From contig CAXXLL010000003.1 in assembly GCA_963662545.2 (NCBI GenBank), positions 1,920,001 through 1,984,000 on the forward strand: DNA of 64,000 bases, given 5' to 3'. A program made the position numbers and the translations under genes. The notes beneath the pieces were generated by a model, which saw only the letters and a list, made by a program, of their open reading frames with translations, had not been told where the DNA came from and made no database searches. This DNA comes from Gammaproteobacteria bacterium. GTDB taxonomy: Bacteria > Pseudomonadota > Gammaproteobacteria > Ga0077536. Positions 350 to 23,488 of the stretch are shown in pieces (the first letter of the stretch is position 1; the number at the start of each line of letters is the position of its first letter).

Positions 350-454
350 ATTCCCGAGCGTAGCGCAACCGCACCTAACAAATGGATCAACCGGACGTGA
401 TAGTTCCTACGGTTTAGTGGACACCCTGAACTAACTATTCAGGAGTGTTCCAAG

Positions 455-814
455 ATGCCAAAACCAGGCCCGAGAACGACGTATAAATACAGCGACGAAT
501 TCAAAGCGACAGCGGTCCGCTTAAGTGAACTGCCGGATGTAGCCATCCAGGATGTCGCTGCGTCTCTTTACATTCACCCCTTCATGTTGTCTCGTTGGCG
601 CAAACAAGTGCGCGAGGGAATGATCATGGCTAGAGGTGTGGAAATCGATAAAGAAACAGCGGCGGAGCTGAAAGCGCTGCGTCAGATGAAGAAGGACTAC
701 GAGCGTCTAAAAGTGGAGCATGACCTTTTAAAAAAAGCGATCGAGTTCACTTCCAAACGAAAAGCGATGTCTTCGCGTTCATCGACTACCACGTCAAAGA
801 AGGGATCTCGGTGA
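455..814 (+). CDS. IS3 transposase OrfA (HTH)
   Basis: [13 protein letters not shown]; ends LLKKA at the frameshift motif. Confidence 0.9.
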
Positions 815-1620
815 CGACGATGTGTGCGTTATACGACGTGAGTTCCAGTGGTTATTACGCCTGGCGGAAACGCCCGCGCAGTCAGCGCTCGATTGAGGAC
901 GAGGCGCTGTTGGTTGAGATCCGCGAGGCGCATGCGCTGGGCCGGAAGACCTATGGGAGTCCGCGTGTACACGAGGTCTTGTTGCAGCGCGGGAGGAAGG
1001 TCGGGCGACGCCGGATCGAACGATTGATGCGGGAAAATGGCATTCGCGGGTGCTCAGCCGACCAGTACCGTCGCACGCCTGGCCTGGACCGCTTCTTTGG
1101 TGTGATCGGCAATCGTATACACAAGATGCCGGTGACGGCACCCGACCAGGTGTGGGTCTCGGATGTGACCTATGTGAAGGTCAACGCTGAGTGGCGCTAT
1201 CTGTCGGTGGTAATGGATCGGTACTCACGTCGCGTATTGGGTTGGTCATTGGGGCCTGAGAAGACGGCAGCATTGACCGGTCGGGCGTTGCACCAAGCTT
1301 TGAAGCTGAGGCGGCCACCGGCGGGGACCGTATTTCACAGTGACCGCGGTTCAGAATATGTGGCTAGCCACCTGCAGGCTGCGCTGGGTAAGGCGAAGTT
1401 GGTCCCGAGTATGAATCGCCGGCGTCGGATGACGGACAATGCCCATATGGAGTCATGGAATAAGACGATGAAGTCCGACATGTACCACCGACGCCTGTTC
1501 AGCAGTGACAAACAGCTGCGCGATTCACTGCGTTCCTACATCGACTTCTATAATCGGGTGAGACTACACTCGTCTTTAGGATATCAATCACCGATAGCGT
1601 TTGAGCAAGCATGCAGCTAA
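811..1620 (+). CDS. IS3 transposase OrfB (rve DDE)
   Basis: [23 protein letters not shown] motifs. Confidence 0.95.
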
Positions 1621-1810
1621 CTTATGGGTGTCCACTTTTTCGTAGGAACTCCCCGCGGTACAGCAGGCTCCTTTGGGCCGGCTTCGCATTTTCGCCCCAA
1701 AGGAGCTGCTGTAACACACAGGTTATCCTAGCGTTAGGTGCTCCGGCGCGGACGTTACGGTGGATAAATTTCGAATGGCGCGATATCGAGCTGTATGCTA
1801 AGTTCAGTGC

Positions 1811-2026
1811 ATGAAAATCTCAGCCGCAGATACACTAGATATACCGATTCGGGAACGAATTCAGCTCGTTGCTGACATTTGGGAGAGCATCGCCGAATTT
1901 CCAGACGAGATCGAGCTTTCGGGAGCCACGCGGGAACTACTCCGAAAGCGATTGGAAGCGTATCGAGCAAATCCAAACGCCGGGTCCCCTTGGGAAGAGG
2001 TTAAGAATCGAATTTTGTCTAGATGA
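1811..2026 (+). CDS. Addiction-module antitoxin (TIGR02574-like)
   Basis: ERIQLVADIWESI...PWEEVK; overlaps a RelE/ParE gene. Confidence 0.85.
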   Translation: MKISAADTLDIPIRERIQLVADIWESIAEFPDEIELSGATRELLRKRLEAYRANPNAGSPWEEVKNRILSR

Positions 2027-2331
2027 GCCGCTCGCTCATCGTCGAACCAGAAGCCGAAACAGATATCTTGGACGGCTATATCTGGTACGAAAACCGAGAA
2101 GAAGGACTTGGATCGAGGTTTATCGAAGAACTTGAGTCCGCATTCAATCGGGTCGCCGCGAACCCTATGTCCTACCAGGAGGCAGAACCAGATATCAGAC
2201 GGTCCGTGACCCACGTTTTCCCGTATCTAGTATTCTTCTCCTTCGATGACGATGCAGTTTATGTGCTGGCTGTCATTCCAGCGTCCCAAAATCCTGATTA
2301 CATCAACGCGCGCCTTGAAGCTCTTGGCTAA
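2023..2331 (+). CDS. RelE/ParE-family toxin
   Basis: PEAETDI..WYE..GLGSRF..FPYLVFF..VLAV. Confidence 0.85.
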   Translation: MSRSLIVEPEAETDILDGYIWYENREEGLGSRFIEELESAFNRVAANPMSYQEAEPDIRRSVTHVFPYLVFFSFDDDAVYVLAVIPASQNPDYINARLEALG

Positions 2332-2376
2332 GGTTAATTCGCAAATCCACCCAATGTGTTCCAGGGACGATCCCGC

Positions 2377-2486
2377 ACCTAACAAGTGGATCAACCGGAC
2401 GTGTTACAGCGCGCTTGTTTGGGCCGGCGTCGCATTTTCGTCCCAAACAAGCGCGCTGTAACGCGCCGGTTATCCTGGCGTTAGGT
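2377..2486 (+). repeat. attC (110-bp family)
   Basis: ACCTAAC...GTTAGGT, paired stem. Confidence 0.95.
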
Positions 2487-2551
2487 ATTTTGGCAGGAAA
2501 CACTAGCGGCCGGGTGCTAACATTTACGATCAAGTGACGAAGGAGACGTCA

Positions 2552-3195
2552 ATGAAGATTCGTTCCACCGCAATCCTTGCGTCGATATTACTTGCTGGCA
2601 CACATCTCCCCGTCAGCGCCATTTATCTAAATGACCAGAATATTTTGGTTGCTCTCGGTTCTAGCATGTCTGCCGAGCCGTTTCAGAATCAAACTACCGC
2701 GGTTTCGCTGGCGAAGATCGATGCTCCAAACGCCGCAGCGTCTGAAAACCATGTCAGCCCAACAACCCACGTATGGGTGAGTGGCGGATCGCTGGAACTA
2801 GATTTTGATTTCGGCGTTGATGATCGCTCGAACTAGATTTTGACCATGACCTCACCATCCATTTCTGGAATTATCATTCAGAGGCGTTCGATGTTGACGA
2901 TATTGACTTCGTATTCCGCGATTCGTCTAGCAACATCGTCGGGAGCGTTCTAAATCTCAACCCCCAAGTTGGTGGCGGGGGGAGCAATCCTATATTCGCA
3001 GAAGATTTCGCATTGCAATTTCCATTGAATGTTCGGTTCGTGAATGTAGTGCTTTCCGGGTCGAACGGAGAGGTGGACTTTAACAACATAGGTTTTACAG
3101 GGGACATATCTGTCATTCCAATTCCGGCCTCGATATTCCTGCTGGCCTCTGGGATCTTAGGGATAAATGTAACCACCAAACGAAGAAGAACTTGA
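2552..3195 (+). pseudogene. Secreted PEP-CTERM-like (IPIPA) protein, split by an internal duplication
   Basis: Signal peptide; C-terminal IPIPA-TM-KRRR; 22-bp duplication at 2787-2808/2822-2843 breaks the frame. Confidence 0.7.
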
Positions 3196-4281
3196 ATTCA
3201 AGCGTGAAGTGCAACACGGGTAATTAGAGTCCTGCATAGATTTGCTCCGGTGTTTTGTATCCGAGTCGCTTTCTCGGACGTGTGTTGAGCTTCCTAGCGA
3301 TCGCATCGCATTCGTTTTGGGTAAGGTTCGCCATGCTTCTGCCCTTCGGCAGATACTGGCGTATCAAGCCGTTGGCATTCTCGTTCGTTCCGCGCTCCCA
3401 GGAATGATAAGGGGTGGCGAAATAGAAGGCGGCACCGGTGCGTTTTTCAATCGCGTCGTATTGGTGAAACTCGGTGCCATTGTCGGCGGTAACGGTACGC
3501 ACCCTGCGGGCCTCACGGTTAATCAGTTTGATCATGGCTCGATTGAGCTCGGCAGTGGTTCGCGCTTTGAGCTTACCGATGGCAACGAGTCCGGACTTGC
3601 GCTCGACCAGAGTCGCGATGCAATGGAGATCGCGACCGCCCATGACCGTATCACCCTCCCAATGTCCTATTCGGGATCGATTCTCCGCACCCGGTGGGCG
3701 CTGCGAAATATGACGTTTCCCCGGTAATACGCCTCGAGAATCGACCGAGCCGTAGCGTTTGCGCCATTTCTTGGTGGCCTGCCGAAGGTGGGTATAGAGG
3801 TATCCGCCTTCGTAATGGTCGTACCAGATGAACCGGTAAATAGTCTCGTGGCTGATAGCGCACACACGCCACAAGCGCAACCAGCCCGAGATCTGCTCTG
3901 GGCTCCATTCTAGCCGCACCAAAGCGCTGATCATTTGCAGCTGCCAGTCGGCAAACTGCCATTTTCTTCGTGATTCTCGCCGCCGGCGCCGGGTTCTGCT
4001 GTCTGCCTTGAAGGCGCGATAATCCCCGTCTTTGCACAGGTTTCTCTGCACTTCGCGCATCACCGTACTACGGTGGCGGCCGATGGCACGCCCGACCTCA
4101 GAATAGTTAAGTCCTTGCCAAAGCAGCGCCGCGATCTTATACCTCTCATCAGAGGTGATCTGGTGGTACCTCATCGTGGGTATCCTCTTCTTGCCGGAAA
4201 AGAATGCTTAAGAGTATCCCAGCTCGCTTCGTTTAACGCGATAGACGGAATTTCATGTGTTGCATTTACTTTGTGAATCCG
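3193..4281 (-). mobile_element. IS30-family element, copy 1 (intact)
   Basis: ~25-bp TIRs TGAATTCAAGCGTGAAGTGCAACAC / GTGTTGCATTTACTTTGTGAATCCG. Confidence 0.95.
3224..4174 (-). CDS. IS30 transposase
   Basis: GHWEGDTV, TADNGTEF, SWERGTNENANGLIRQY. Confidence 0.95.
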   Translation of the reverse strand: MRYHQITSDERYKIAALLWQGLNYSEVGRAIGRHRSTVMREVQRNLCKDGDYRAFKADSRTRRRRRESRRKWQFADWQLQMISALVRLEWSPEQISGWLRLWRVCAISHETIYRFIWYDHYEGGYLYTHLRQATKKWRKRYGSVDSRGVLPGKRHISQRPPGAENRSRIGHWEGDTVMGGRDLHCIATLVERKSGLVAIGKLKARTTAELNRAMIKLINREARRVRTVTADNGTEFHQYDAIEKRTGAAFYFATPYHSWERGTNENANGLIRQYLPKGRSMANLTQNECDAIARKLNTRPRKRLGYKTPEQIYAGL

Positions 4282-4285
4282 CCTC

Positions 4286-4395
4286 ACCTAACAAATGGAT
4301 CAACCTGACGTGTTACAGCAGGCTCCTTTCCAGCGGCTTCGCATTTTCGCCTCCAAGAAGCCTGCTGTAACACGCAGGTTATCCTGGCGTTAGGT
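4286..4395 (+). repeat. attC
   Basis: Family consensus. Confidence 0.95.
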
Positions 4396-4726
4396 GTCGC
4401 CAGGAAACTCAAATGAAATGGGAACTAATTGGCGCGTACGCAGAAGTCATCGGGGCTATAGCGGTCATCGTTTCAATCCTTTACCTCGCGTTACAGGTGC
4501 GCGACAACACTCGCTCAGTTAGGGCCAACGCAGGTTTCGAAGCCGCGCATTCTTGGGCAATCTCTAACGAGATCTTGTATCAAGCGCCAGAGAAGGACCG
4601 GATGGTTTTTGCGCGGGCGTTCGATCTCGGAGAATCGGTAGACAAGTTTTCTGAGAGCGAGCGAATCCACATCAGTATCTTGATGCGGTCATTATTTGAA
4701 AAACTCGAAGGGCAATACTATTTGTT

Positions 4727-6111
4727 GGGTCTACGCGGATTCATGTGGGTAAATTCTGAATTAGACCAAGTGTAAACCATTGAAATCATGTAGACATTCA
4801 GAGATTTCGTATGGGGTGAAAGTGGTTTCATTTTGTGGGTAGGCTAAGGCCATGAAGAATCCCAAGTCGATCCGAGCGCTGTTTGCGTTCCCTGGTTTTA
4901 CCGCCGCATCGAAATTGGTGGGCATGTTTGGTGATCGGTATGCCCGTGTGATCCAACTCAAGAGGCGAAAAAAACAGCGATCTGTTCTCACTGTGCTCAC
5001 CGGTGCCGCGGGCGTTACGACAAGAAGGTGCTGCGAGTACGAGACCTGTCAGTTGCCGGATGGCGAATCTACCTGGAGTTCGAACGCTGGCGTGTCAGTT
5101 GCCGGAGGTGCGGCGGCGTGCAGGTAGAACATCTTGACTGGCTGGCAAAGAACCCTCGCTATACGCAGCGCTTTGCCATGCAGGTGGGCAAGCTGTGCCG
5201 GGACATGCCGAACCAGGCTGTCGCCGAGAGGGAACGCCTGCACCACAGCACGGTGAAAGACCTCGATAAGCTGTACATGCAAAAGCAGGTTGAGCTGGCG
5301 GGCATGCCAGCACCCCGGGCCATCGGTATTGATGAGATCTCCATCCGCAAAGGACATAACTACCGGGTCATCGTCAGTGACCTGGATCGGGGGCGTCCTA
5401 TCTGGGTCGGTGGTGAAGGTCGCAAAGAGGCTGACATCGACCTGTTTTTCCAGGCATTGGGCGAGAACAAGAGCGCTCGCATCGAACTGGCGGCGATGGA
5501 CATGTGGAAGCCGTTCCGTAACTCGGTCATGAACAACGCACCGCAGGCGCGGATCATCTATGACAAGTTCCATATCATGCGCCACCTCTCAAAGGCTCTC
5601 GATGAAGTCCGGCGCCGTGAATACAAACGTCTCCGCGGCAAGGACAGGAGTTACATCAAAGGCCAGCGATATACCTTGCTCTCGCGACGCGAGAACCTGA
5701 ATCTGGATGGCAGACGAGCCCTGAAAAAACTGCTCCAGGCCAACCGGCGTCTGAACACCGCCTACGTCCTCAAGGAAACCTTCGGCCAACTCTGGGACTA
5801 CCGTACCGAGCGCGGCGCGCGTGCCTTTTTCGAGCGCTGGAAGGACAGTCTGAAATGGCAGCGATTGGCGCCGTATCGCAAGTTTGCTGAGCTGATTGAA
5901 TCCCATTGGGATGGCATTGCTTCCTATTGTGATGCTAAGAATAAAGTCAGTCTTGGATTGGTCGAAGGGGTCAACAACAAAATCCGGGTCCTGCAACGAC
6001 GCGCCTATGGCTATCGTGATGAGGAATTCCTCAAACTGAAAATCATTGCGGCATTTCTTCCGCCACTACCCAGAAATGCCAATATCAACCCACACGTTTC
6101 CGCGTAGACCC
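4727..6111 (+). mobile_element. ISL3-family element
   Basis: TIR GGGTCTACGCGGA / TCCGCGTAGACCC; 8-bp TSD TATTTGTT. Confidence 0.95.
4852..6107 (+). CDS. ISL3 transposase (-1 frameshift at A7, ~4968-4974)
   Basis: IGIDEIS, AAMDMWKPF, DKFH, EGVNNKI motifs; Zn finger in the shifted frame. Confidence 0.9.
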
Positions 6112-6343
6112 TATTTGTTTAAATACGGTAGCCTCGATCAAGCGATTTGGGATATCCGAAAGGCATGGGCGGCAGGCGCGTTGCAAACTCCGTTCTTTCA
6201 AAAATGGTGGGAGGTGGAAAAGAGTCAAGGGATTTACTCGCCAGAATTCATCGAACTCATCGAAAAAGCGCGGCCGATTTCGATAGACGGGTTTGCGAAT
6301 GAAACGAGGCCACTCGATGCTTAGACTTCCAAGTGAAATGCAC

Positions 6344-7665
6344 TGAGCGGACCGGGAGAAAGGTAACAAAAGTGCCAAGGTAGATGGGTAACACTTTTGT
6401 TATCGATAATGTCGTTTTAGTCGGCCGTAAGCATCTTCGATCCGATTGTATTTTTCAATCATTCGGCCGAGCTTAAGCGTTCCGAAATAGACGTTCCAAA
6501 CACCACAGTCGATTTCCTCTAATCCTATGTACTCACCGGCACACGCGATTGAGACAGGCACATGGGTGGAATGCCATCGGATGCCACCGTTGGCACTGAC
6601 GAAGCGCTTGATGAAACGGTCAGGATATTCGAGCGGCGGGATTTTGCTAGGCATTTCTTTGGCAGAAAATTCGTAGAAGTCGGCAGGTGTGAACATGTCG
6701 AGCGCTTCATGAGGGCGTTCTTCATTGAATTCAATCTGGAACCGATTAAATCGTTTCTGTTGCGCGCGATAGTCCCCGGCCGGAGGTCGAGTCGTCTCCG
6801 CCTTTAAGGTTCGGTGCATCCGTTCGTGTCGGCCATTTTGTTGAGGCTTTCCGGGTTCGATGAGCTCGGGATAAATACCAAGCCTGATCCACCAGGCAGA
6901 CAGCGTTGATAATCGACCGAGCGTGTTCGTCGCGAAGGGGACGCCGTTGTCGGTACGGATGCGTTCTGGCAGTCCGTATTCTTTGAATAAGCGGGTGAAC
7001 ACCGCCTTCGATGGTTCAACGGCGGTCGTGAGTAATGACTGGCATCCGATGAGGTATCGACTAAAGCCATCGGTGACGGTCAACGGGTAACAATACCGCC
7101 CGTCTTCGGTCTTGAAATGCCCTTTGAAGTCGGCGCCCCAGGTTTGGTTGGGTGCATTCATTCGGGTTTCAGGTTTTCCCGGATGCCCGAGTTTGCGTGA
7201 GCGCCGCGGTGTCCGGATGAATCCTTCACGGATTAGGATGTCATGAATGGTTGTCCGTGTTGGCCACGGCTCTCGCGGGTGCTTCCGCGATAGAAACGTC
7301 CGCAATTTACGAGCGCCCCAAGTCGGATGACGTTGTCGCGCATCGATGATCAGGCGCTCGAGCCGCGCCGGCGTTTTATGCGGGCAAGTTCTAGGCCGCC
7401 GTGTGCGTTCCTCTAAACCCGCCGGACCTTCGCTTAGATACCGATCAATCCATTTGTAGCCAGTCTTGCGACTGATGCCGTAATGTTCGCACAGCTCGGT
7501 AACTGTCAACAGGTCGCGCAGATAGTCTGCGATGAATTGCGTTTTTTCGTTCATTGGTGACGTTTCTCTCCAGGGCATCGGACTCCTCCTTTGAGGAACC
7601 TAATACCATTGATCTGTCACCCATGTACCTTGACTATAATGTTACCTATCTACCCGGTCCGTACC
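6344..7665 (-). mobile_element. IS481-family element
   Basis: TIRs TGAGCGGACCGGGAGAAAGGTAACA / TGTTACCTATCTACCCGGTCCGTACC; CAC duplication. Confidence 0.9.
6400..7578 (-). CDS. IS481 transposase
   Basis: MPWRETSPM start, WGADFKG, RTDNGVPF, QQNGRHER. Confidence 0.95.
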   Translation of the reverse strand: MPWRETSPMNEKTQFIADYLRDLLTVTELCEHYGISRKTGYKWIDRYLSEGPAGLEERTRRPRTCPHKTPARLERLIIDARQRHPTWGARKLRTFLSRKHPREPWPTRTTIHDILIREGFIRTPRRSRKLGHPGKPETRMNAPNQTWGADFKGHFKTEDGRYCYPLTVTDGFSRYLIGCQSLLTTAVEPSKAVFTRLFKEYGLPERIRTDNGVPFATNTLGRLSTLSAWWIRLGIYPELIEPGKPQQNGRHERMHRTLKAETTRPPAGDYRAQQKRFNRFQIEFNEERPHEALDMFTPADFYEFSAKEMPSKIPPLEYPDRFIKRFVSANGGIRWHSTHVPVSIACAGEYIGLEEIDCGVWNVYFGTLKLGRMIEKYNRIEDAYGRLKRHYR

Positions 7666-7673
7666 CACCATTC

Positions 7674-7783
7674 ACCTAACAAACGGATCAACCTGACGTG
7701 TTACAGCGCGCTTCTTTAGGTCGGCTGCGCATTTTCGCCCAAAAGAAGCGCGCTGTAACACGCCGGTTATCCTGGCGTTAGGT
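7674..7783 (+). repeat. attC
   Basis: Family consensus. Confidence 0.95.
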
Positions 7784-7793
7784 GGCAGGGAAA

Positions 7794-8039
7794 ATGAGTC
7801 CGACCGTATTTCGTGAAAAGGGTTACAGGTTTTTCTTTTTCTCCCTGTAAGAGTCACGAACTCATGTTCACGTGAGGCCCCAAGCCGGCGAGGCGAAGTT
7901 TTGGCTAGAGCCAGATATCGAATTGGCGAGAAATCACCGGTTATCCCAAGTACAATTGAATGAAGTCCAAGCCATCGTCGAGGCACGGAAAGATGAACTC
8001 ATCGCAGCCTGGCGCGAACACTTCGACAGTAGTAACTGA
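7794..8039 (+). pseudogene. DUF4160 toxin with premature TAA (7848-7850)
   Basis: MSPTVFREKGYRFFFFSL*ESRTHVHV...AKFWLEP. Confidence 0.8.
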
Positions 8040-8259
8040 CATATCGCCAGACGGTATTTGGCTTCTCTATGCAGAAGAGGAGCTATTTATGCCGTTTGAT
8101 GAGTTTCCGTGGTTTAAGAAGGCTTCGGTCGAACAGATCTTGAATGTTGTCGAAGAACAACCGGGGACATTTCACTGGCCAGATCTTGACATTGATCTGG
8201 GGCTCGATTCGATCCGTAATCCTGGCCATTACCAATCTGGGGCTCGATTCGATCCGTAA
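7993..8259 (+). CDS. DUF2442 antitoxin, second copy, C-terminus altered by a duplication
   Basis: Near-identical to 83-349. Confidence 0.8.
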   Translation: MNSSQPGANTSTVVTDISPDGIWLLYAEEELFMPFDEFPWFKKASVEQILNVVEEQPGTFHWPDLDIDLGLDSIRNPGHYQSGARFDP

Positions 8260-8345
8260 TCCTGGCCATTAAGCGTTAAAAGCAAAAACCGACGCTTAGA
8301 TTCCCGAGCGCAAAAACCGACGCTTAGATTCCCGAGCGCAACCGC

Positions 8346-8455
8346 ACCTAACAAATGGATCAACCTGACGTGTTACAGCAGGCTCCTTTGAGGCGGCTCC
8401 GCATTTTCGCCCCAAAGAAGCCTGCTGTAACACGCAGGTTATCCTAGCGTTAGGT
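8346..8455 (+). repeat. attC
   Basis: Family consensus. Confidence 0.95.
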
Positions 8456-8705
8456 GGCCGGGAACATAGATTTCGAAATTGTCGGTCCGATCCGTGACAT
8501 CGAGACCATTGCTAGCGGTACCGGTGTGACAATTCGCTCATCTCTCCGGAAAGCATACGGGCGAGGACGTTGGCGTAAAATGAAGGGTACCGCCACAGTT
8601 AAACTAGCGAACGGAACTGAACGCATCTTAGAATTGCATTGGTACGAGGCGCACGGAATTGGAAAGCGAGATCTCAAAATTAAGCGCTATTTAGACGACC
8701 TATGA
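8454..8705 (+). CDS. Small basic hypothetical protein (putative toxin)
   Basis: WRKMKG...ELHWYEAHGIG; ATGA overlap with the next gene. Confidence 0.6.
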   Translation: MAGNIDFEIVGPIRDIETIASGTGVTIRSSLRKAYGRGRWRKMKGTATVKLANGTERILELHWYEAHGIGKRDLKIKRYLDDL

Positions 8706-8938
8706 AACAACCATCGAAGCCATTCGCACTATGCATTAACAATGACGACTACAAAGCGTCATTAATACTCGGAAAGGTCTACCGGCTTATCCCAGATAGA
8801 GACGCTGCGAAGGACGATTTCGTTCGAATCGTGGATGAAAGTAGCGAGGACTATCTATATCACAGGGCGCATTTCGTCTTCGTCGATTTTCCACCAGCAG
8901 TACGAAAACGAATTCTTGAAATAGAAAGCGCCACTTAA
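8702..8938 (+). CDS. Small hypothetical protein (putative antitoxin)
   Basis: FALCINNDDYKASL..GKVY..RIVDES.EDYLY. Confidence 0.6.
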   Translation: MKQPSKPFALCINNDDYKASLILGKVYRLIPDRDAAKDDFVRIVDESSEDYLYHRAHFVFVDFPPAVRKRILEIESAT

Positions 8939-9011
8939 GTTCACGATTGAAGTGGCTCAACAGCCCGCGGAAAGGTAAGAAAAATGTCCCGGGCTTCGTT
9001 AAACACCATTC

Positions 9012-9121
9012 ACCTAACAAACGGATCAACCTGACGTGTTACAGCGCGCTTCTTTAAAGCGGCTTCGCATTTTCGCTCTAAAAAAGCGCGCTGTAACACG
9101 CCGGTTATACTAGCGTTAGGT
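9012..9121 (+). repeat. attC
   Basis: Family consensus. Confidence 0.95.
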
Positions 9122-9174
9122 CTCATTTCGACTCCGGTCTATACTTGTATTATCGGACGTGGAAGAGAAATCCT

Positions 9175-9492
9175 GTGACTGAGAATGCAAAAAAGCTTTA
9201 TCGAGAAGCGCTTGGTCTTTCGCCGAACGAGCGCGTCGGCCTGGTTGAGGAATTGTTGAACAGCCTCGACAAACCTGCCCCGAACATTGACGCATTGGCG
9301 AAGGAGGCGGAAGATCGACTCCGCGCTTACTGTGCAGGCGAAATCCAAGCGTATTCGTCGGATGAAGTGTTTGCGAATCGACTCCGCGCTTACTGTGCAG
9401 GCGAAATCCAAGCGTATTCGTCTGGAATCTGGAAGGCGCTTGAAAGTTCGCTTTCTAGATCCGGCTCGCGCAGAACTCCGAGATGCCATTGA
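9175..9492 (+). pseudogene. Addiction-module antitoxin with duplicated C-terminal segment
   Basis: ALGLSPNERVGLVEELLNSL; 46-bp duplication at 9314-9359/9377-9422. Confidence 0.7.
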
Positions 9493-9733
9493 GTACCTAA
9501 ATGATCAGCGTGACGGTCTCGGTCAAGAGTTTCTAGAAGAAGTACGCGCTACGACAAAACGGATAGAACGACACTCGATTGCTTGGGCGCCGCTCAGCGA
9601 AAACACCCGCCGGTGCAGGACCCACCGATTCAAATACGGGTTAATCTACGAAGTAACTGACGAAGAAATTCTCATTGTTGCCGTTGCTCACCTTCACCGT
9701 GAGCCGAACTACTGGCGGAAGCCTCAAAAATGA
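9440..9733 (+). CDS. RelE/ParE-family toxin
   Basis: KVRFLDPARAELRDAIEY..GLGQEF..RFKYGLIY..IVAVAHLHREP; start codon approximate. Confidence 0.85.
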   Translation: MKVRFLDPARAELRDAIEYLNDQRDGLGQEFLEEVRATTKRIERHSIAWAPLSENTRRCRTHRFKYGLIYEVTDEEILIVAVAHLHREPNYWRKPQK

Positions 9734-9734
9734 A

Positions 9735-9844
9735 ACCTAACCAGTGGATCAACCGGACGTGTTACAGCAGGCTCCTTTGAGGCAGCTTCGCATTTTTGCC
9801 CCAAATGAGCCCGCTGTAACACGCAGGTTATCCTAGCGTTAGAT
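9735..9844 (+). repeat. attC
   Basis: Family consensus. Confidence 0.95.
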
Positions 9845-9858
9845 GGACTAGAAATCTT

Positions 9859-10362
9859 ATGGACTGGAGTGCGATATCGGGTATAGCGGAAACCGTGTCC
9901 GCAATTGGCGTAATTGCGTCGCTACTTTATGTCGGATATCAAATCCGAGAAAACACTGTCGCAGCTGAACGTTCCAACGCTCGGCAAACTGCGTCGGATC
10001 ACGCGAGGGTAATACTCAGCTTTGTGGAAAATGAGGAAATGGCGGATCTGAGATTACGCGGCCTCGACGATTTGGAGAGTCTGTCGACTGTAGAAAGATA
10101 CCGGTTTGATCTTGGGATGAGTGTCTGGCTAGAAACGATAGAACAGGCTTTCGCCGATGCTCAAATCGGCAAATTCTCGGAAGACCTTTTGGTTGAGTAC
10201 CGCAATCGCTTGGCGCTTATAGTTGACACACCGGGGGGGCGTTTATGGTGGACGACACGTAAATCATGGCTTAGTCCCTCTTTTCGAAATGTGGTGGACC
10301 GTGTACTCGAAGAAGGTACGCCGGAAGAAATACAAAGTGCGAGGATCACAACATCCACCTAA
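9859..10362 (+). CDS. Membrane-anchored hypothetical cassette protein (MxW family)
   Basis: N-terminal TM, YVGYQIREN, TPGGRLWW. Confidence 0.8.
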   Translation: MDWSAISGIAETVSAIGVIASLLYVGYQIRENTVAAERSNARQTASDHARVILSFVENEEMADLRLRGLDDLESLSTVERYRFDLGMSVWLETIEQAFADAQIGKFSEDLLVEYRNRLALIVDTPGGRLWWTTRKSWLSPSFRNVVDRVLEEGTPEEIQSARITTST

Positions 10363-10464
10363 CCAGGGGATCAACCTGACAGCTTACAGCGCACTTTACC
10401 GGTGTGGCGATATTTTCACACCTCCAAAATGCGCTGTAAGCTGCAGGTTATCCCAACGTTAGGC
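10357..10464 (+). repeat. attC (divergent subfamily)
   Basis: ACCTAAC...GTTAGGC; stem CAGCTTACAGCGCA/TGCGCTGTAAGCTG. Confidence 0.9.
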
Positions 10465-10515
10465 GGCTCGGAAGAAGATGAACCCGAAAATTTAGCAGTA
10501 CTAGAGGAAGAAAAT

Positions 10516-10809
10516 ATGGCTGGATATCTAGTTGCCAACTACAAGATCACCGATCCTAAGGGCTACGAGGGTTATGGGCCCGCCGCTATGCCAACTTTGG
10601 AAGCTCATGGCGCGGAAATATTGGTTGCCGATTACGAAAGCGAACCACTAGAGGGTGCCCCGGCATCAATCACCGTCGTTTTGAAGTTCACATCTAAAGA
10701 AGCCGCGACAGCCTGGTATGAGTCACCCGAATACGAAAAAGTGATCAATCTAAGAACTGATAATAGCGAAGGTATGGCTGTTATCGCGGATGGGTTCGTC
10801 ATGCCGTAA
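10516..10809 (+). CDS. DUF1330-family protein
   Basis: MAGYLVANYKITDP..Y..EG....VVLKFTSKEAATAWYESPEY. Confidence 0.85.
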   Translation: MAGYLVANYKITDPKGYEGYGPAAMPTLEAHGAEILVADYESEPLEGAPASITVVLKFTSKEAATAWYESPEYEKVINLRTDNSEGMAVIADGFVMP

Positions 10810-10851
10810 CGGCAAGGCGGAAACATCGACTTTATGCACCAAAATGCCGCC

Positions 10852-11936
10852 CAGATGTCCAAGTGAAGTGCAACAGGGGTGATTAAACTGCTGCATAACA
10901 TTCCTCCGGTGTTTTGACGCCGAGAACCCTTCGCGGACGTGTGTTGAGTTTCTTCGCTATCTTATCGCAGTCACGTTGTGTAACGTCTGCCATGGTTTTC
11001 CCTTTGGGCAGGTACTGTCGAATAAGGCCGTTGGTATTTTCATTGGTACCGCGTTCCCAGGAATGATACGGCGTGCAAAAATAGAAGCGAGCGTCGGTCG
11101 CGTTTTCTATCTTCTGGAACTGATGAAACTCAGTTCCATTATCGGCGGTTACGGTTCGCACCAAGCGCATTTCACGTTTGATAAGTTGGATCACTTTGCG
11201 GTTGAGTTCGGCGGTCGTGCGAGCCCGAAGTTTTCCGATTAAGGTATATCGTGTCTTACGTTCAACGAGGGTCACGATGCAGTGACCGTCGTGGCTACCG
11301 ATGACGGTGTCTATTTCCCAATGACCGATGCGGGAACGGTTTTCAGCGCCTGGTGGTCGTTCGGTGATATGGCGCTTTCCTCGCATAACACCGCGAGAAT
11401 CACCGCTGCCGTAGCGTTTCCGTCGTCGTTTTTCCGCCTGTCGCAGATGCTTATATAAGGTGCCGCCGAAGAAGTGGTCGTACCAGATATACCGGTATAG
11501 GGTCTGGTGACTGATTGAAAATATCCGATGACGCTTGAACCAATCCGAGACTTGCTAGGGGCTCCATTCCTCGCGCAGCAAGCGAATGGCGAGACTGAGT
11601 TGTTGGTCGGTGAAATACCATCGTCGGCGAGACTTCGTTCGCCTGCCTCGGGTCATCTCCTCAGCTTCGTCAGGACGATACCGACCGATGCGGCGATTAC
11701 GCTTTAGTTCGCGTCCGATCGTAGACCGATGTCGCCCGAGTTTTCGAGCGACCTCTGCGTTTTTACAGCCTTGCATTTTCAAGGTGTGAAGCATATACCT
11801 CTCTCCAGAGGTGAGCTGGTGATAACTCATCGTAAGTTTCCTATTCTGCCAAGAAGAGAATCTTACGAGTATCCCAGCTCGCTTCGTTTAACGCGATATA
11901 GGGAAATTCTTGTGTTGCACTTACATTGTGAATCCG
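10852..11936 (-). mobile_element. IS30-family element, copy 2 (transposase has an in-frame TAG at 11555)
   Basis: TIRs, CC/CC 2-bp duplication, IS30 motifs in 10883-11830. Confidence 0.95.
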
Positions 11937-11940
11937 CCTC

Positions 11941-12050
11941 ACCTAACAAACGGATCAACCTGACGTGTTACAGCGGGCTTCTTTCCAGCGGCTTCGCATT
12001 TTCGCTTCCAAGAAGCCCGCTGTAACACGCAGGTTATCCTAGCGTTAGGT
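11941..12050 (+). repeat. attC
   Basis: Family consensus. Confidence 0.95.
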
Positions 12051-12081
12051 TGAAAGAAGCCGCGTCGTCTACAATCAAGAC

Positions 12082-12324
12082 ATGGAAACCGCTGCTGAAA
12101 TTGAACGGAAACTGCTCGACCTACCTGCTGCCGACCGTGAACGACTTGCTCTTAAAGCCTGGGATAGTCTTGTCGCTGATCCGAACGCGGCCAGTGATCC
12201 GAATATTGACCCGGAGGGAGTAAAAGTCGCCGCGCAGCGAGATACCGAAATGGATGCGGAAAACGTTGAGCCGATCGACCAGACTGAATTCCGCCGCCGG
12301 ACAAGCGGTATAGATGAGAGTTGA
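12082..12324 (+). CDS. Addiction-module antitoxin
   Basis: LLDLPAADRERLALKAWDSL. Confidence 0.8.
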   Translation: METAAEIERKLLDLPAADRERLALKAWDSLVADPNAASDPNIDPEGVKVAAQRDTEMDAENVEPIDQTEFRRRTSGIDES

Positions 12325-12610
12325 GTACCACCCCTCAACGGTCACGGACGTAAATAGCGCGGTAAAACACTATGAGGACCTACGTCCAGGCCTCGGGGCG
12401 GAAGTGCGAGCGGAAATCTATAGCGCAATCGATCGAGTTGTAGAATCGCCTCACCGTTATAGGAGGGTAGAGGGCGAAATACGGCGGTGTTTCGTACAGC
12501 GATTTCCGTATTCAGTCCTATATCGTTTCGTAGAAAGCGAAGACCTTGTACGCATTCTTATCGTTCGCCATCATCGGCAACGATCGAGTTTCGGACTGTC
12601 TCGCCAATGA
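12314..12610 (+). CDS. RelE/ParE-family toxin
   Basis: YE..RPGLG..RRCFVQRFPYSVLY..RHHRQ. Confidence 0.85.
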   Translation: MRVEYHPSTVTDVNSAVKHYEDLRPGLGAEVRAEIYSAIDRVVESPHRYRRVEGEIRRCFVQRFPYSVLYRFVESEDLVRILIVRHHRQRSSFGLSRQ

Positions 12611-12632
12611 AAGATTTGCATTGTGCCGTTCA

Positions 12633-12743
12633 ACCTAACAAATGGATCAACCGGACGTGTTACAGCGGGCTCGTTTGGGCCGGCTCCGCTATTTTCGTCC
12701 CAAACAAGCCCGCTGTAACACGCCGGTTATCCTAGCGTTAGGC
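12633..12743 (+). repeat. attC
   Basis: Family consensus. Confidence 0.95.
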
Positions 12744-12759
12744 GGCTAGAGACAATCGA

Positions 12760-13247
12760 ATGAACTGGCAGGCTTTAAGTTCGATCGCCGAGGCAACCGG
12801 CGTCCTACTTGTATTTGTGTCCGTCGTATACCTAGCGATTCAGTATACACAAGATGTGCGACAGCGACAGAACGTGCTCTGAAAGCTTCGTCACACCACG
12901 CGATAACAGATTCGTTCAACAACACCAGTGCCTTGGTCGCCCAAGATCCTGCGACCGCAAGGCTATGGCGTCTTGGAAGCGCTGGTCTGTCGAACCTCGA
13001 TGAGGACGAGCAGGTTTCATATGCTTTCATCTGCATTATGTATATGCGCGTAATGGAGACGCTTTACTATCAGAGAAAGGTCGGGACGATGGAGGAACAG
13101 TTGTATACCACCGAAGAACACACGCTTCATGTGTTTTTCTCATTTCCCGGGTTCCGGGAATGGTGGAACAGTAATCCATACTCGTTTAGCACTGAATACA
13201 GAGATCACATTAACGCGATAATCGGAGAAATAGATGCCGCCGCCTAA
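12760..13247 (+). pseudogene. MxW-family cassette protein, frameshifted near 12845-12870
   Basis: MNWQALSSIAEATG...YLAIQ in one frame, FPGFREWW in another. Confidence 0.75.
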
Positions 13248-13351
13248 CAAATGGATCAACCGGACGTGTTGCAGCGCGCTTCTTTTAAGCGGCTTCGCAT
13301 TTTCACTCAAAAGAAGCGCGCTGCAACACGCCGGTTATCCAAGCGTTAGGT
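13242..13351 (+). repeat. attC
   Basis: GCCTAAC...GTTAGGT. Confidence 0.95.
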
Positions 13352-13391
13352 GGCACGAAATCGTGTAGCCCGACTCGAAAAGTATTAAGGC

Positions 13392-13784
13392 ATGGAAACC
13401 TATCAAGCATTAGAAGCGATGTATGTAATTAGGGGAGTTGTTGCGCAGGATGCAATGAATTTCTTCACATTACTTTCGGCTTACCTGATTGTTGCCTATT
13501 TAGTTGGATCTAAACTATCGACTTTTCAGGTATGGGCAATCTCTGTTCTCTACACCGCGTTCTGTGCTGGACCGATAGCCGGTTTCTACGTGGGGGTTGT
13601 CGACCTGGGGGCAATTAATCACGCTGATGGCGGGCTATACGCCGTTGAACACACCTGGATAGTGCCATTGATCATGGTTTTGAGCTGGGTGCTAAGCATC
13701 GTATTCATGGTCGATGCACGTAGTAGGTCGCGAGGAAAGGCCGATCGATCTGAAGCGGCGGGATCAGTTGAGAAGGCCGAATAA
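13392..13784 (+). CDS. Hypothetical 3-TM membrane protein
   Basis: AYLIVAYLVGSKLSTFQ; paralog of 16451-16834. Confidence 0.75.
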   Translation: METYQALEAMYVIRGVVAQDAMNFFTLLSAYLIVAYLVGSKLSTFQVWAISVLYTAFCAGPIAGFYVGVVDLGAINHADGGLYAVEHTWIVPLIMVLSWVLSIVFMVDARSRSRGKADRSEAAGSVEKAE

Positions 13785-13879
13785 GCTTACAAACGGGAAG
13801 CAACTGGGCAGTCGCGAGAATAAAAAGAAAAAATGTCCAAAGCTCCGTTAAACGCCCGGACCGCGTAACAAAAGTGCCC

Positions 13880-14015
13880 ACCTAACAAATGGATCAACCG
13901 GACACGTTACAGCGGGCTTGTTTGGGCCCGCTTCGCTATTTTGGTCCCAAACAAGTCGTCTCCGCCTTTAAGGTTCGGTGCCCGCTGTAACGCGCCGGTT
14001 ATCCTAGCGTTAGGC
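13880..14015 (+). repeat. attC with a ~26-bp IS481-derived insertion
   Basis: Consensus plus GTCGTCTCCGCCTTTAAGGTTCGGTG. Confidence 0.85.
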
Positions 14016-14030
14016 GTCACGCACAATCGA

Positions 14031-14620
14031 ATGTCGCAATTTGAGTTCTTTATGATCATCGCCTCCGTTCTAGTGGCGATTGCAATTACAGAAGTCGTAC
14101 AGAAGTCGTAAGTTGGTGGGGCAAACTACTACGGAACAAACGAATGAGAGACGTTGGTAGCGTTTACTTAGCTTGGTCCGCTCTCTTCATTTGCACCATC
14201 GTCCTCTATTGGAGTGGCTTTTGGGCATACGAAGGCGTGATCATTGTTAACTATGCGCAAATCTGGATGTTGCTGCTACCAACTCTTCTCGCGATCTTAG
14301 TGGCATTCACAATTACGCCCAGTAGCGCTGAACCCTCATTTACTTTCCGCACCTACTATGAAGAAAATCGAAAACTCATTTTCTTCTGTTGGGCTTTATT
14401 TATTCTTGGGGCTGCAGTTGCTGACGTCGTGATGCTCAAATCAATAGATTTAGAAGGCGCACTCCCCGCAGGGGTTATAATCGGAATACTTGTTGCGTGC
14501 GGATTGACTAAGAATATTTGGGTTCACTGCATCGCCTTGGTGATTTTGTTTACTCTGATGCTTCTTGTTCCGGTTGCCTTGGGGTTTAAGGAAACTTTGG
14601 ACTTTTTCAGTGGCGCGTAG
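14031..14620 (+). pseudogene. Multi-TM hypothetical protein frameshifted by an 11-bp tandem duplication
   Basis: ACAGAAGTCGT x2 at 14088-14109; removing one copy restores the MSQFEFF... frame. Confidence 0.8.
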
Positions 14621-14643
14621 ACTTCGAAGCGAAGTGCATCACC

Positions 14644-15729
14644 CAGATGTCCAAGTGAAGTGCAACAGGGGTGATTAAACTGCTGCATAACATTCCTCCG
14701 GTGTTTTGACGCCGAGAACCCTTCGCGGACGTGTGTTGAGTTTCTTCGCTATCTTATCGCAGTCACGTTGTGTAACGTCTGCCATGGTTTTCCCTTTGGG
14801 CAGGTACTGTCGAATAAGGCCGTTGGTATTTTCATTGGTACCGCGTTCCCAGGAATGATACGGCGTGCAAAAATAGAAGCGAGCGTCGGTCGCGTTTTCT
14901 ATCTTCTGGAACTGATGAAACTCAGTTCCATTATCGGCGGTTACGGTTCGCACCAAGCGCATTTCACGTTTGATAAGTTGGATCACTTTGCGGTTGAGTT
15001 CGGCGGTCGTGCGAGCCCGAAGTTTTCCGATTAAGGTATATCGTGTCTTACGTTCAACGAGGGTCACGATGCAGTGACCGTCGTGGCTACCGATGACGGT
15101 GTCTATTTCCCAATGACCGATGCGGGAACGGTTTTCAGCGCCTGGTGGTCGTTCGGTGATATGGCGCTTTCCTCGCATAACACCGCGAGAATCACCGCTG
15201 CCGTAGCGTTTCCGTCGTCGTTTTTCCGCCTGTCGCAGATGCTTATATAAGGTGCCGCCGAAGAAGTGGTCGTACCAGATATACCGGTATAGGGTCTGGT
15301 GACTGATTGAAAATATCCGATGACGCTTGAACCAATCCGAGACTTGCTAGGGGCTCCATTCCTCGCGCAGCAAGCGAATGGCGAGACTGAGTTGTTGGTC
15401 GGTGAAATACCATCGTCGGCGAGACTTCGTTCGCCTGCCTCGGGTCATCTCCTCAGCTTCGTCAGGACGATACCGACCGATGCGGCGATTACGCTTTAGT
15501 TCGCGTCCGATCGTAGACCGATGTCGCCCGAGTTTTCGAGCGACCTCTGCGTTTTTACAGCCTTGCATTTTCAAGGTGTGAAGCATATACCTCTCTCCAG
15601 AGGTGAGCTGGTGATAACTCATCGTAAGTTTCCTATTCTGCCAAGAAGAGAGTGCTTACGAGTATCCCAGCTCGCTTCGTTTAACGCGATATAGGGAAAT
15701 TCTTGTGTTGCACTTACATTGTGAATCCG
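14644..15729 (-). mobile_element. IS30-family element, copy 3 (same nonsense codon as copy 2)
   Basis: Near-identical to 10852-11936. Confidence 0.95.
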
Positions 15730-15733
15730 GGCC

Positions 15734-15844
15734 ACCTAACAAATGGATCAACCTGACGTGTTACAGCGGGCTTCTTTCCAGCGGCTTCGCATTTTCGCTT
15801 CCAAGAAGCCCGCTGTAACACGCAGGTTATCCTTAGCGTTAGGT
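15734..15844 (+). repeat. attC
   Basis: Family consensus. Confidence 0.95.
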
Positions 15845-15857
15845 TGCTAGAGTAAAA

Positions 15858-16127
15858 ATGGACTTTGAATGGGACCCGGAGAAGGCCCGACTAAACGAGG
15901 ATAACCACGGCGTATCATTTTTCGAGGCCCGCGAAGCATTTCATGACGATTTATCATCGACGGCTCGTGACCCCGATCATTCCGAAGATGAAGACAGATA
16001 TTTAATATTCGGTCAGACAGAAAACGGGCGACACATCGTAGTGTCGTATACTGAAAGGGAAGATAGAATTCGCCTCATATCTGCGAGAGAAATGACGCCC
16101 CGTGAGCGTAGAGCATATGAACAGTAA
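15858..16127 (+). CDS. brnT: BrnT-family toxin
   Basis: MDFEWDPEKA..N..NHGVSF..E.RY..IRLISAR. Confidence 0.9.
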   Translation: MDFEWDPEKARLNEDNHGVSFFEAREAFHDDLSSTARDPDHSEDEDRYLIFGQTENGRHIVVSYTEREDRIRLISAREMTPRERRAYEQ

Positions 16128-16320
16128 GAATGACGATATGCGTGCCGAGTATTCCGAAGAACTGATCAAATCAGGCGAAAGAGGAAAATACGCGAAGCGG
16201 TATCGCGAGGGTACGAATGTCGTCCTAATAGACCCGGATCTTCACAAAATCTTTCCTGATTCAGAGTCGGTCAATAAAGCTCTTCGCGAGTACGTTGCTC
16301 AAAAGCAAAGCGCAACCTAA
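16117..16320 (+). CDS. BrnA-like antitoxin
   Basis: MRAEY..GERGKYAKRY..IDPDL..FPDSESVNKALR, downstream of brnT. Confidence 0.75.
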   Translation: MNSKNDDMRAEYSEELIKSGERGKYAKRYREGTNVVLIDPDLHKIFPDSESVNKALREYVAQKQSAT

Positions 16321-16424
16321 CCAATGGATGAACCTGACGTGTTACAGCGCGCTTCTCTGGGGTGGCTTCGCATTTTCACCCCATAGAAGCGCGCTGTAAC
16401 ACGCAGGTTATCCTAGCGTTAGAG
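16315..16424 (+). repeat. attC
   Basis: Family consensus; overlaps the stop codon. Confidence 0.95.
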
Positions 16425-16450
16425 GGCTCGATGAACTGCGTGGCCGAAAT

Positions 16451-16834
16451 ATGAGCGAAGCTGAAGCAGTCGAGCTAATCGCGGCGTACTTAGACAATTT
16501 GGTCGTAAGCATCAGCGTGTACCTGAGCATTACGTTCGCGTTTCTTGTAGTTTCCCACACGGTCGGCTCGAGACTAAGCCAGTTCCAGGCGACGGTAGTT
16601 TCTGTGCTGTACATCGTCGCATCTTTAACTATGTATGGCGCAATGTTGATCAGCCAACTCTGGATAGAGAGTTTGCTCGCGTCAAATCCAATCGTTTTGC
16701 GGACAGAAAGTCTCAAATTAATGATGAACATGAAGTTTTGGAAAACCGCTTTGGCAGTACTAATATTTTCTGGAATTCTCGTAAGTCTCTACTACTCGCA
16801 CGATGCTCGTCGAAGCACGCGGCCAGAGCAATAA
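16451..16834 (+). CDS. Hypothetical 3-TM membrane protein
   Basis: AFLVVSHTVGSRLSQFQ. Confidence 0.75.
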   Translation: MSEAEAVELIAAYLDNLVVSISVYLSITFAFLVVSHTVGSRLSQFQATVVSVLYIVASLTMYGAMLISQLWIESLLASNPIVLRTESLKLMMNMKFWKTALAVLIFSGILVSLYYSHDARRSTRPEQ

Positions 16835-16881
16835 AGAGTCCGTGAGGGAAAAGATGGATCGCCCCGAAGCAAAAAACCGCC

Positions 16882-16994
16882 ACCTAACAAATGGATCAAC
16901 CGGACGTGTTACAGCAGACGGCTCATTTGAAGCGGCTTCGCATTTTCGCTTCAAATGAGCCTGCTATAACACGCCGGTTATCCTAGCGTTAGGT
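16882..16994 (+). repeat. attC
   Basis: Consensus with a 3-bp insertion. Confidence 0.9.
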
Positions 16995-17028
16995 CGCAAG
17001 AAGGATAGAGGAGTAAACTTTCACTTCT

Positions 17029-17280
17029 GTGCCAGGTATGAAGGCTGAGACGATGGTGAAACAATCGGTAATTTATAGGTCACCGGAGATCCTCGGCGGC
17101 ACGCCCGTATTTCAAGGCACCCGAGTTCCCATCCGCACACTCATCGATTACCTTGAAAATGGGGAACGGATCGAGGATTTTCTCCGTGAGTTCCCAACCG
17201 TAACGAAAGAGCAAGCTATCGAAGTTATGGAACTTGCTAGCCGAGCAATACTCACGGAAGGCGATGAGGCTGCTGCTTGA
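17029..17280 (+). CDS. DUF433 (VapB45-like) antitoxin
   Basis: PEILGGTPVFQGTRVP...FPTV; start codon uncertain. Confidence 0.9.
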   Translation: MPGMKAETMVKQSVIYRSPEILGGTPVFQGTRVPIRTLIDYLENGERIEDFLREFPTVTKEQAIEVMELASRAILTEGDEAAA

Positions 17281-17584
17281 TGAATCGCTCCCACGCCGTC
17301 TGAGCGACCTGCTGGAAGGCCACTCCGTAACTACGGTACAGGAACAAGGATGGGCTGGCGCCACTAACGGCGATTTGCTCCGCATGGCAGAGGCTGAGTT
17401 CGACGCTTTCCTAACGGCGGATCAGAATCTTCAATATCAACAGAATCTCGAAGGTTTCGACATCGCCGTACTTGTTATAGCTGCACCAAGTACACGTATC
17501 GCAGATCTAGAGCCGCTCGTCCCAGATATTCTATCGGCGCTCTCTGAAACCAAGATCGGTGAGGTGCGCCGAATTGCAGCGTAG
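17264..17584 (+). CDS. DUF5615 PIN-like (VapC45-like) toxin
   Basis: MRLLLDESLP...GW.G..NGDLL..FLTADQNL. Confidence 0.9.
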   Translation: MRLLLDESLPRRLSDLLEGHSVTTVQEQGWAGATNGDLLRMAEAEFDAFLTADQNLQYQQNLEGFDIAVLVIAAPSTRIADLEPLVPDILSALSETKIGEVRRIAA

Positions 17585-17608
17585 GTTAACAACCGAAATG
17601 CAACATTC

Positions 17609-17718
17609 ACCTAACAAGCGGATCAACCTGACGTGTTACAGCGCGCTTCTTTAGGTCGGCTCCGCATTTTCGCACGAATGAAGCGCGCTGTAACACGCAG
17701 GTTATCCTAGCGTTAGGT
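17609..17718 (+). repeat. attC
   Basis: Family consensus. Confidence 0.95.
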
Positions 17719-17764
17719 TGCAGGTAACGTTGGAAGCCAAACGGATGGGTGCGATAATCAATTT

Positions 17765-17959
17765 ATGAAACTTGCCATAGAACTCAATGCCACGGATTCT
17801 AAGCAACTTCGGAGCATAGCCGAAGACATGGGTGTCCCGGTGGAGGAACTTGCTACCGCTGCAATTGCGGATTTGATCCGAGCAAACTCTGCTGATTTTG
17901 AAGGCGCCGCGTCTCGAATTCTCGAAAAAAACCGAGAGCTCTATAAGCGCCTAAGCTAA
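17765..17959 (+). CDS. Doc-associated antitoxin
   Basis: Ends EKNRELYKRLS; coupled to doc. Confidence 0.75.
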   Translation: MKLAIELNATDSKQLRSIAEDMGVPVEELATAAIADLIRANSADFEGAASRILEKNRELYKRLS

Positions 17960-20226: not shown

Positions 20227-20246
20227 AACTAGAGAAATTCCCCTGT

Positions 20247-23482: not shown

Positions 23483-23488
23483 TATTAT

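Follow-up and report, generated by a model that had tools for sequence, protein, structure and literature searches.

We consider it highly probable (roughly 0.9) that the three IS30-family insertion sequences (ISs) carried by a 64,000-nt stretch of gammaproteobacterial DNA (assembly GCA_963662545.2, contig CAXXLL010000003.1, positions 1,920,001 to 1,984,000 of the forward strand; hereafter, the window) represent a monophyletic sub-branch of that family which inserts site- and orientation-specifically at the 5' edge of integron attC sites. The three measure about 1.08–1.09 kb, and the single DDE transposase that they code for has helix-turn-helix domains at its N terminus. An attC-adjacent targeting clade had been proposed in a preliminary description of the window, and the proposal holds for a group broader than the window showed: all genomic copies occupy the same position (5/5), one of them has an empty counterpart site, relatives in other genomes abut attC with one IS end (55/71) vs. 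never with the other (0/71), and the attC-adjacent elements fall into one clade (SH-aLRT 97).

The genome (label G000) comprises 3 contigs and 5.58 Mb; C2 and C3 are contig labels. The window features on which the argument draws are listed below, IRL and IRR being the left (transposase-proximal) and right terminal inverted repeats (IRs), and R'' and R' the boxes that begin and end an attC.

1..29539, plus strand: cassette array without adjacent integrase gene (CALIN), recognized by 110-nt attC repeat families and the nhmmer cluster C3:1917898-1949539
3191..4283, minus strand: IS copy 1, variant A, 1093 bp, from open reading frame (ORF), translation and IR ends; the low-numbered end is IRR, the high-numbered one IRL
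3224-4174, minus strand: intact transposase coding sequence of copy 1, 316 aa, from ORF and translation
4284..4286, plus strand: duplication position of copy 1, TCA, the final A of which opens R''; the left counterpart, GAA at 3188-3190, is a mismatch
4286..4395, plus strand: complete attC after copy 1 (nhmmer hit C3_1924286, 110 nt, 117.6 bits)
10850..11938, minus strand: IS copy 2, variant B, 1089 bp; frame broken by an in-frame TAG at 11555-11557; private 1-nt deletion; terminal triplet GCC
11941..12050, plus strand: complete attC after copy 2 (nhmmer), 99% identical to that of copy 3
14642..15731, minus strand: IS copy 3, variant B, 1090 bp; transposase frame 14675-15622 broken by the same TAG, at 15347-15349
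15734..15844, plus strand: complete attC after copy 3 (nhmmer); the triplet at the duplication position is CCA, 15732-15734

The junction string GAATCCG-N4-ACCTAAC is present on the plus strand of the window at the three reported sites (starts 4275, 11930 and 15723) vs. none in 100 shuffles, reading GAATCCGCCTCACCTAAC at 4275-4292 and 11930-11947 and GAATCCGGGCCACCTAAC at 15723-15740. Each string marks the point where a minus-strand IS meets the R'' end of a complete attC. The transposase genes of all three copies thus lie antiparallel to the plus-strand cassette array, with complete attCs downstream, as the preliminary description had it, and its distinction of two IS variants also stands, copies 2 and 3 being near-identical and copy 1 approximately 69% identical to both. 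It had further placed the IS ends, all in the same orientation, 4 bp before R''; the common orientation is correct, but the true gap to the 7-bp R'' box is 2 bp. The IRL-side end lies two bases past ...GAATCCG and reads …GAATCCGNN, a boundary that follows from the empty-site comparison of copy 5 (below), from the 3-bp duplications of relatives and from IS-only contigs of relatives that end ...CCGCG (the ends of copy 1 were set by the IR core plus a 26-nt rule). The former 4-bp gap is therefore composed of 2 bp of IS and 2 bp of duplication, the third duplicated base being the first base of R''. The one matching 2-bp target-site duplication previously seen, at copy 2, results from the misplaced boundary: taken as 3 bp, the left/right flanks read GAA/TCA for copy 1, CCG/TCA for copy 2 and TCA/CCA for copy 3, with no perfect match among the window copies (0/3).

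Two further copies, both of variant B and with an intact transposase, bring the genome to five, distributed over three unlinked loci and each showing ...GAATCC-N5-ACCTAAC at its attC-adjacent end.

C2:1162 kb: copy 4, at the very edge of a small attC cluster, which it heads
C3:357 kb: copy 5, next to a solitary short attC

The locus of copy 5 has an IS-free paralogue at ~908 kb within a 1.36-kb repeat (97-98.5% identical): the occupied locus reads CATCATCCA[IS]CCACCTAAC and the IS-free one CATCATCCACCTAAC. Aligned around the junction, the empty site is ...GCATCATCCACCTAAC..., and the filled site is ...GCATCATCCA, then the IS (CCCAGATG...GAATCCGGG), then CCACCTAAC. It follows that the IS extends past GAATCCG by two bases and that 3 bp are duplicated, here as a perfect CCA. 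A sixth IS30-family transposase of the same genome (C2:86193-87017, 396-aa open frame), which has no attC nearby, serves as an in-genome negative control; in the tree it belongs to another branch, grouping with E. coli IS30 and IS1394. A contig joint linking 14642 to 15732 in public runs X11 and X12 was considered as an empty site of copy 3 and rejected, because only 25 letters make up its shorter side and the loose end that matches it in X1 has the sequence of the 908-kb paralogue. The position of copy 4 at a cluster edge is a hint that parts of arrays may be moved by IS-mediated recombination.

The preliminary description had suggested tabulating the flanks of all genomic copies and of close homologues; this survey places the 5/5 genomic copies and 55/71 relatives at the site. 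Relatives were collected by a scan with the copy 1 protein over one genome per species, using peptide patterns, which yielded 79 loci from Gamma- and Betaproteobacteria, Spirochaetota, Acidobacteria, Gemmatimonadota, a cyanobacterial metagenome-assembled genome (MAG) and Nitrospira. Most readable IRL flanks among them run ...CCGCG-NN-RYCTAAC and continue into a full attC. Removal of duplicate junctions, one-ended elements and one false end pairing from the pooled set left 74 unique complete elements, 71 of which form the main group. An attC was called from TAAC at the exact offset plus inspection; two automatic attC scores (palindrome or R'-partner alignment) were dropped for poor separation, Vibrio and long attCs scoring low. 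In the main group, TAAC (as YYTAAC) lies at +6..+9 beyond IRL in 55/71 elements and at the same offset beyond IRR in 0/71; perfect 3-bp duplications flank 29/71 vs. approximately 1 expected by chance. When IS lineages are defined by their end pairs, 26/33 have at least one attC junction. Upstream of the duplication the target logo is devoid of information; downstream it shows a strong ccTAACAa...T..Ag..Gac.

This pattern recurs within individual genomes and across hosts. Ten of ten junctions in a Spirochaetota MAG abut attC, eight of them with perfect duplications and at different attCs. On the 2.06-Mb replicon of V. campbellii, 11 of 14 ISVa6-like copies abut a Vibrio-type attC at the same offset. 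Genomes of the same family as ours contribute attC-abutting junctions in G006 (2/2), G023 (1/1) and G033 (2/2). The adjacent attC is of the local host type, be it Vibrio, Spirochaetota or Xanthomonadales.

Three side observations concern individual relatives. On a V. vulnificus plasmid (L150, 382-504), genes annotated as 'DUF3265 domain-containing protein' occur where attC flanks the IS30-like element, and these look like spurious ORF calls within Vibrio attC repeats. Small contigs of a Firmicutes assembly titled Paenibacillus dendritiformis (L084-L086) carry a Xanthomonadales-type IS beside a Xanthomonadales-type attC, which is probably contamination and not a true host range. In two loci of one Acidobacteria MAG (L038 and L042), the right-flank triplet CAG of one copy equals the left-flank triplet of the other, as would be expected if two IS copies had recombined.

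A maximum-likelihood tree of 87 transposases (IQ-TREE quick search, LG+G4) unites all 56 attC-adjacent rows (52 with IRL at attC and 4 of a mirror type) in a clade of 78 rows with SH-aLRT 97, which also includes ISVa6- and ISVvu6-like elements. The non-attC rows within this clade are single copies whose sisters, some with identical proteins, are located at attCs. Outside it are 9 rows (E. coli IS30, ISApl1, IS1394, ISAs2, an Aeromonas element, a P. veronii element, the sixth transposase of this genome and others), none of which is at an attC (0/9). The four mirror rows (L075, L077, L105 and L108, from Aquabacterium, Nitrospira, Rubrivivax and Piscinibacter, i.e., Burkholderiales plus Nitrospira) are themselves monophyletic with support 100. 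At these loci, it is IRR, not IRL, that lies 2-3 bp past the R' box of a complete upstream attC (...GTTAGGC-NN|CACG...), so that the IS occupies the start of the next cassette, with its transposase gene still antisense to the array.

Several points weigh against this interpretation. The window alone cannot prove targeting: its copies all lack a perfect duplication, and the attCs next to them resemble one another to an unusual degree. Specificity for attC is not absolute, 16/71 main-group elements being located elsewhere than at YYTAAC; 3 of these 16 are at an attC with a 1-nt shift or a mutated R''. The 16 other targets loosely resemble C-N-A-A, and five of them have perfect duplications. Junctions in the same-family genomes G025, G027 (3 junctions), G004 and G009 are not at attC. 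The relatives were sampled by peptide patterns, which is no census, and many rows come from few genomes; the tree stems from a quick search, and its outgroup is not monophyletic. Finally, recognition of duplex DNA by the protein is a step that we infer.

The mechanism that we propose starts from the observed position, orientation, 3-bp duplication overlapping R'', intact attC, empty site and clade restriction. Transposition would place IRL two bases from the R'' core RYYTAAC, and a 3-bp staggered cut would duplicate NNR, R being the first base of R''; since the duplication overlaps R'', the attC would be regenerated intact. The IS sits within a cassette, with the gene on one side and the attC on the other, and reads antisense to the array. 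IS30 moves by a copy-out/paste-in route, and the present elements may do likewise, with broken copies presumably complemented in trans by intact ones. The protein likely recognizes the R''-proximal portion of attC as a duplex, because all conserved target positions are on the attC side and off-target sites resemble a degenerate YNNAA. A similarity between IS ends and target (TAACAA in the Xanthomonadales repeats vs. CTAACAA, noted by eye) was also considered, and it fails in other lineages.

A variant that accepts real targeting has the transposase read a folded, single-stranded or cruciform attC instead of duplex sequence. attC sites are structured, other attC-targeting elements are thought to read the folded form, one off-target site (L058) is a terminator-like hairpin, and the mirror subclade is found at the opposite arm of the palindrome. 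Nevertheless, the invariant part of the target is the sequence YYTAAC, the five off-target sites with perfect duplications mostly lack hairpins and resemble YNNAA, and the main group never occurs at the structurally equivalent R' arm (0/71). IS30-family DDE enzymes, moreover, act on duplex DNA. We therefore regard structural recognition as unlikely.

Another alternative does without target specificity: a single ancestral IS-attC junction would have been copied by segmental duplication, gene conversion or cassette duplication. The window does contain signs of such copying. Copies 2 and 3 have in common a CAG-to-TAG nonsense codon that is missing from copies 4 and 5, and there is 99% identity between their attCs; among the 44 full-length attCs of the genome, the four that adjoin an IS are mutual nearest neighbours, and the attCs of copies 1-3 have in common an unusual central arm, TTCCAGCG. 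Copy 1 matches variant B at 82-90% in the last 120 nt vs. 50-78% elsewhere, and a relative from G015, which is closer overall, is only 70-77% identical in that last stretch. The IRL tip with the adjoining triplet reads GCC-TCA in copies 1 and 2 and GGG-CCA in copies 3-5. Gene conversion or duplication over the IRL tip, the triplet and the attC would be the simplest reading of this likeness, and it would also explain the imperfect duplications of the window copies.

Judged from these comparisons, the window copies are not three independent insertion events. The preliminary description had named two findings that would overturn it, namely most copies or homologues lying away from attC, or an origin of the three sites by duplication of one junction; the latter applies to the window only, and the former is not what the survey of copies (5/5) and relatives (55/71) returned. 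Since the IS-attC junctions of the window are related by duplication or conversion, the independent evidence comes from outside it. Copying as a complete explanation is very improbable: the left flanks differ right from the IS edge, copy 5 combines a perfect duplication with an empty paralogous site, and 24 perfect duplications occur at differing, host-specific attC sites in other genomes. As a secondary event within this genome it is real, yet it cannot account for the overall pattern. In terms of the targeting mechanism, later homologous recombination or gene conversion may have made copies 1-4 uniform in IRL tip, duplicated triplet and attC, erasing perfect duplications.

Random insertion with survival only in the neutral gap between cassette gene and attC hardly deserves credence: arrays tolerate insertions and other IS families accumulate there too (PMC11023631, PMC11089894), but across phyla 55/71 elements have the same junction, down to the nucleotide, and a single orientation, vs. 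0/71 for the other IS end, a single-base precision beyond survival bias, and the expected scatter over the gene-attC gap is not observed. Equally far-fetched is the movement of IS plus attC as a gene cassette by the integron integrase, for while the copies cease to resemble each other precisely at the R' end of the attC, as expected of an exchange made by the integrase, neither an attC nor an R' box occurs at the left IS boundary, the preceding attC is separated from the IS by differing cassette genes, the 3-bp duplications flank the IS alone, and the adjacent attC is always of local host type. That the IS carries its attC along as a general rule was rejected as well, as IS-adjacent attCs of Spirochaetota and Vibrio differ widely in their central parts and 8/10 Spirochaetota junctions have perfect duplications.

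By profile and layout, the elements belong to the IS30 family. The copy 1 transposase matches the curated IS30 profile NF033563 (NCBIfam) with 291.4 bits (cut-off 80); among Pfam domains, HTH_38 scores above its cut-off and rve, with 30 bits, slightly under its cut-off of 32.6. IS30-family elements measure ~1-1.25 kb and have one ORF, terminal inverted repeats of 20-30 bp and a 2-3 bp target duplication. The present elements correspond in all respects (1089-1093 bp, a single ORF, a ~26-nt repeat at both ends with the core TGTTGCACTT, a 3-bp duplication), their IRL end being ...TGTTGCACTTAC.TTGTGAATCCGCG-like. The TAG common to copies 2 and 3 affects transposase codon 92, which is CAG in copies 4 and 5 and GAG in copy 1. 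These two copies are broken sisters that would be mobile only with transposase from intact copies. Contigs from four other public runs have G instead of A at 15349, restoring CAG in place of TAG.

Two attC-targeting systems are known, and the elements described here qualify as a further one by their fixed position and orientation over independent insertions. The IS1111-attC group (ISPa21, ISPst6 and ISKpn4) was reportedly the subject of Tetu & Holmes in 2008 and Post & Hall in 2009. The available portions of two 2024-2025 integron papers cite only this group as attC-targeting ISs (PMC11089894, PMC12444791). Its members sit antisense to the cassettes at a fixed place close to the 5' end of attC and are monophyletic within their family (PMC3001079, PMC11187229), with a DEDD transposase whose target choice is guided by a seekRNA (PMC11187229). 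The likeness to our elements is close (a fixed position at one attC end, antisense orientation, a monophyletic subgroup), but the families are unrelated: instead of a DEDD enzyme (IS110/IS1111) with seekRNA and subterminal repeats, the elements here have an IS30-family DDE/rve enzyme with helix-turn-helix domains, terminal inverted repeats and a 3-bp duplication, and they border from outside on an attC that stays intact.

Group IIC-attC introns (e.g., S.ma.I2) make up the second known case and constitute a monophyletic attC-specialized lineage inserted between gene and attC, opposite to cassette transcription (PMC3001079). They share with our elements the attC insertion between gene and attC, the antisense orientation and the single attC lineage; unlike them, they are retroelements that use bottom-strand reverse splicing and have no transposase, inverted repeats or target duplication. 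Such introns are marked by an intron RNA and a reverse-transcriptase ORF, and the sole ORF of our elements is an IS30 transposase.

The closest named relatives are ISVa6 and ISVvu6, Vibrio elements of the IS30 family in the same clade. At ~51% amino-acid identity and with other end sequences (...CTTGAATCCAAG), they are different IS species; the ISVa6-like copies in V. campbellii (11/14) and the one ISVvu6 copy examined adjoin a Vibrio attC at the same offset. E. coli IS30, ISApl1, IS1394, ISAs2 and IS18 resemble our elements in profile family, size, single ORF, inverted repeats with the TGTTGCACTT core and short duplications; unlike them, E. coli IS30 and other members of the family fall outside the attC clade, and their copies examined are not at attC. 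Palindromic hot spots, as well as its own inverted repeats, are established targets of IS30. A full-text literature search returned no description of attC targeting by IS30-family elements and no mention of an attC association for ISVa6 or ISVvu6; its reach excluded most subscription journals and ISfinder, so prior notice is possible.

The host array starts ~2.1 kb upstream of the window and accounts for 27 of 59 attC-like sites genome-wide (44 full length), which are spread over ~15 places (at least a dozen loci). Its attCs are 110-nt sites on the plus strand extending from R'' ACCTAAC to R' GTTAGGT, and the imperfect palindrome (R'' RYYYAAC ... R' GTTRRRY), the organization in arrays and the presence of intI genes in the genome together identify them as putative integron attC sites. 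Only two intI genes exceed the TIGR02249 cut-off (462 and 461 bits; C2:996723-997664 and C3:1527239-1528180), neither beside the window array. The cassette gene before copy 1 (3110-3196) encodes a PEP-CTERM-like C-terminal tail, ...VIPIPASIFLLASGILGINVTTKRRRT*; its last codons, ACT TGA, are partly derived from the first IS bases. Joining the left flank of copy 1 straight to CCTAAC gives ACC TAA, which leaves the protein end unchanged and places the original stop codon inside R''.

Other repeats were also noted in the window. Positions 1-300 are 99% identical to 7911-8210, probably as a duplicated cassette, and a perfect 46-bp direct repeat lies within a cassette (9314-9359 and 9377-9422, spacing 63 bp). 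The 19-mer ACATAACTACCGGGTCATC, probably the end of another repeated element, occurs at >15 dispersed places on both large contigs. Part of the window is found in contigs of public runs labelled sponge metagenome.

Overall, attC sites are the currency of integron gene exchange. As annotation is concerned, "IS30 family transposase" genes within arrays should be viewed as invaders rather than as cassette cargo. It is plausible that the IS rides on excisable cassettes, because attC is left intact. IS copies, furthermore, form long direct repeats in arrays, by which cassettes can be rearranged, deleted or moved elsewhere; recombination from one IS copy to another within an array has been documented experimentally (PMC11023631). 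Taking all observations together, we lean, by a modest degree, toward a joint reading in which a phylum-spanning IS30 subfamily (the ISVa6/ISVvu6-like elements of Vibrio superintegrons and those of Xanthomonadales, Burkholderiales, Spirochaetota, Gemmatimonadota and Acidobacteria) would have independently evolved a protein-based, orientation-specific recognition of R'' and so become a third convergent cassette parasite, with a mirror subclade docking its other end at R', and with embedded copies that would drive recombination homogenizing neighbouring attCs and may seed scattered integrase-less clusters. If a DDE transposase indeed reads the R'' box, its protein-based recognition of a conserved integron motif would be open to dissection or re-use, and three unrelated mobility mechanisms would have converged on the same 5'-end antisense position.

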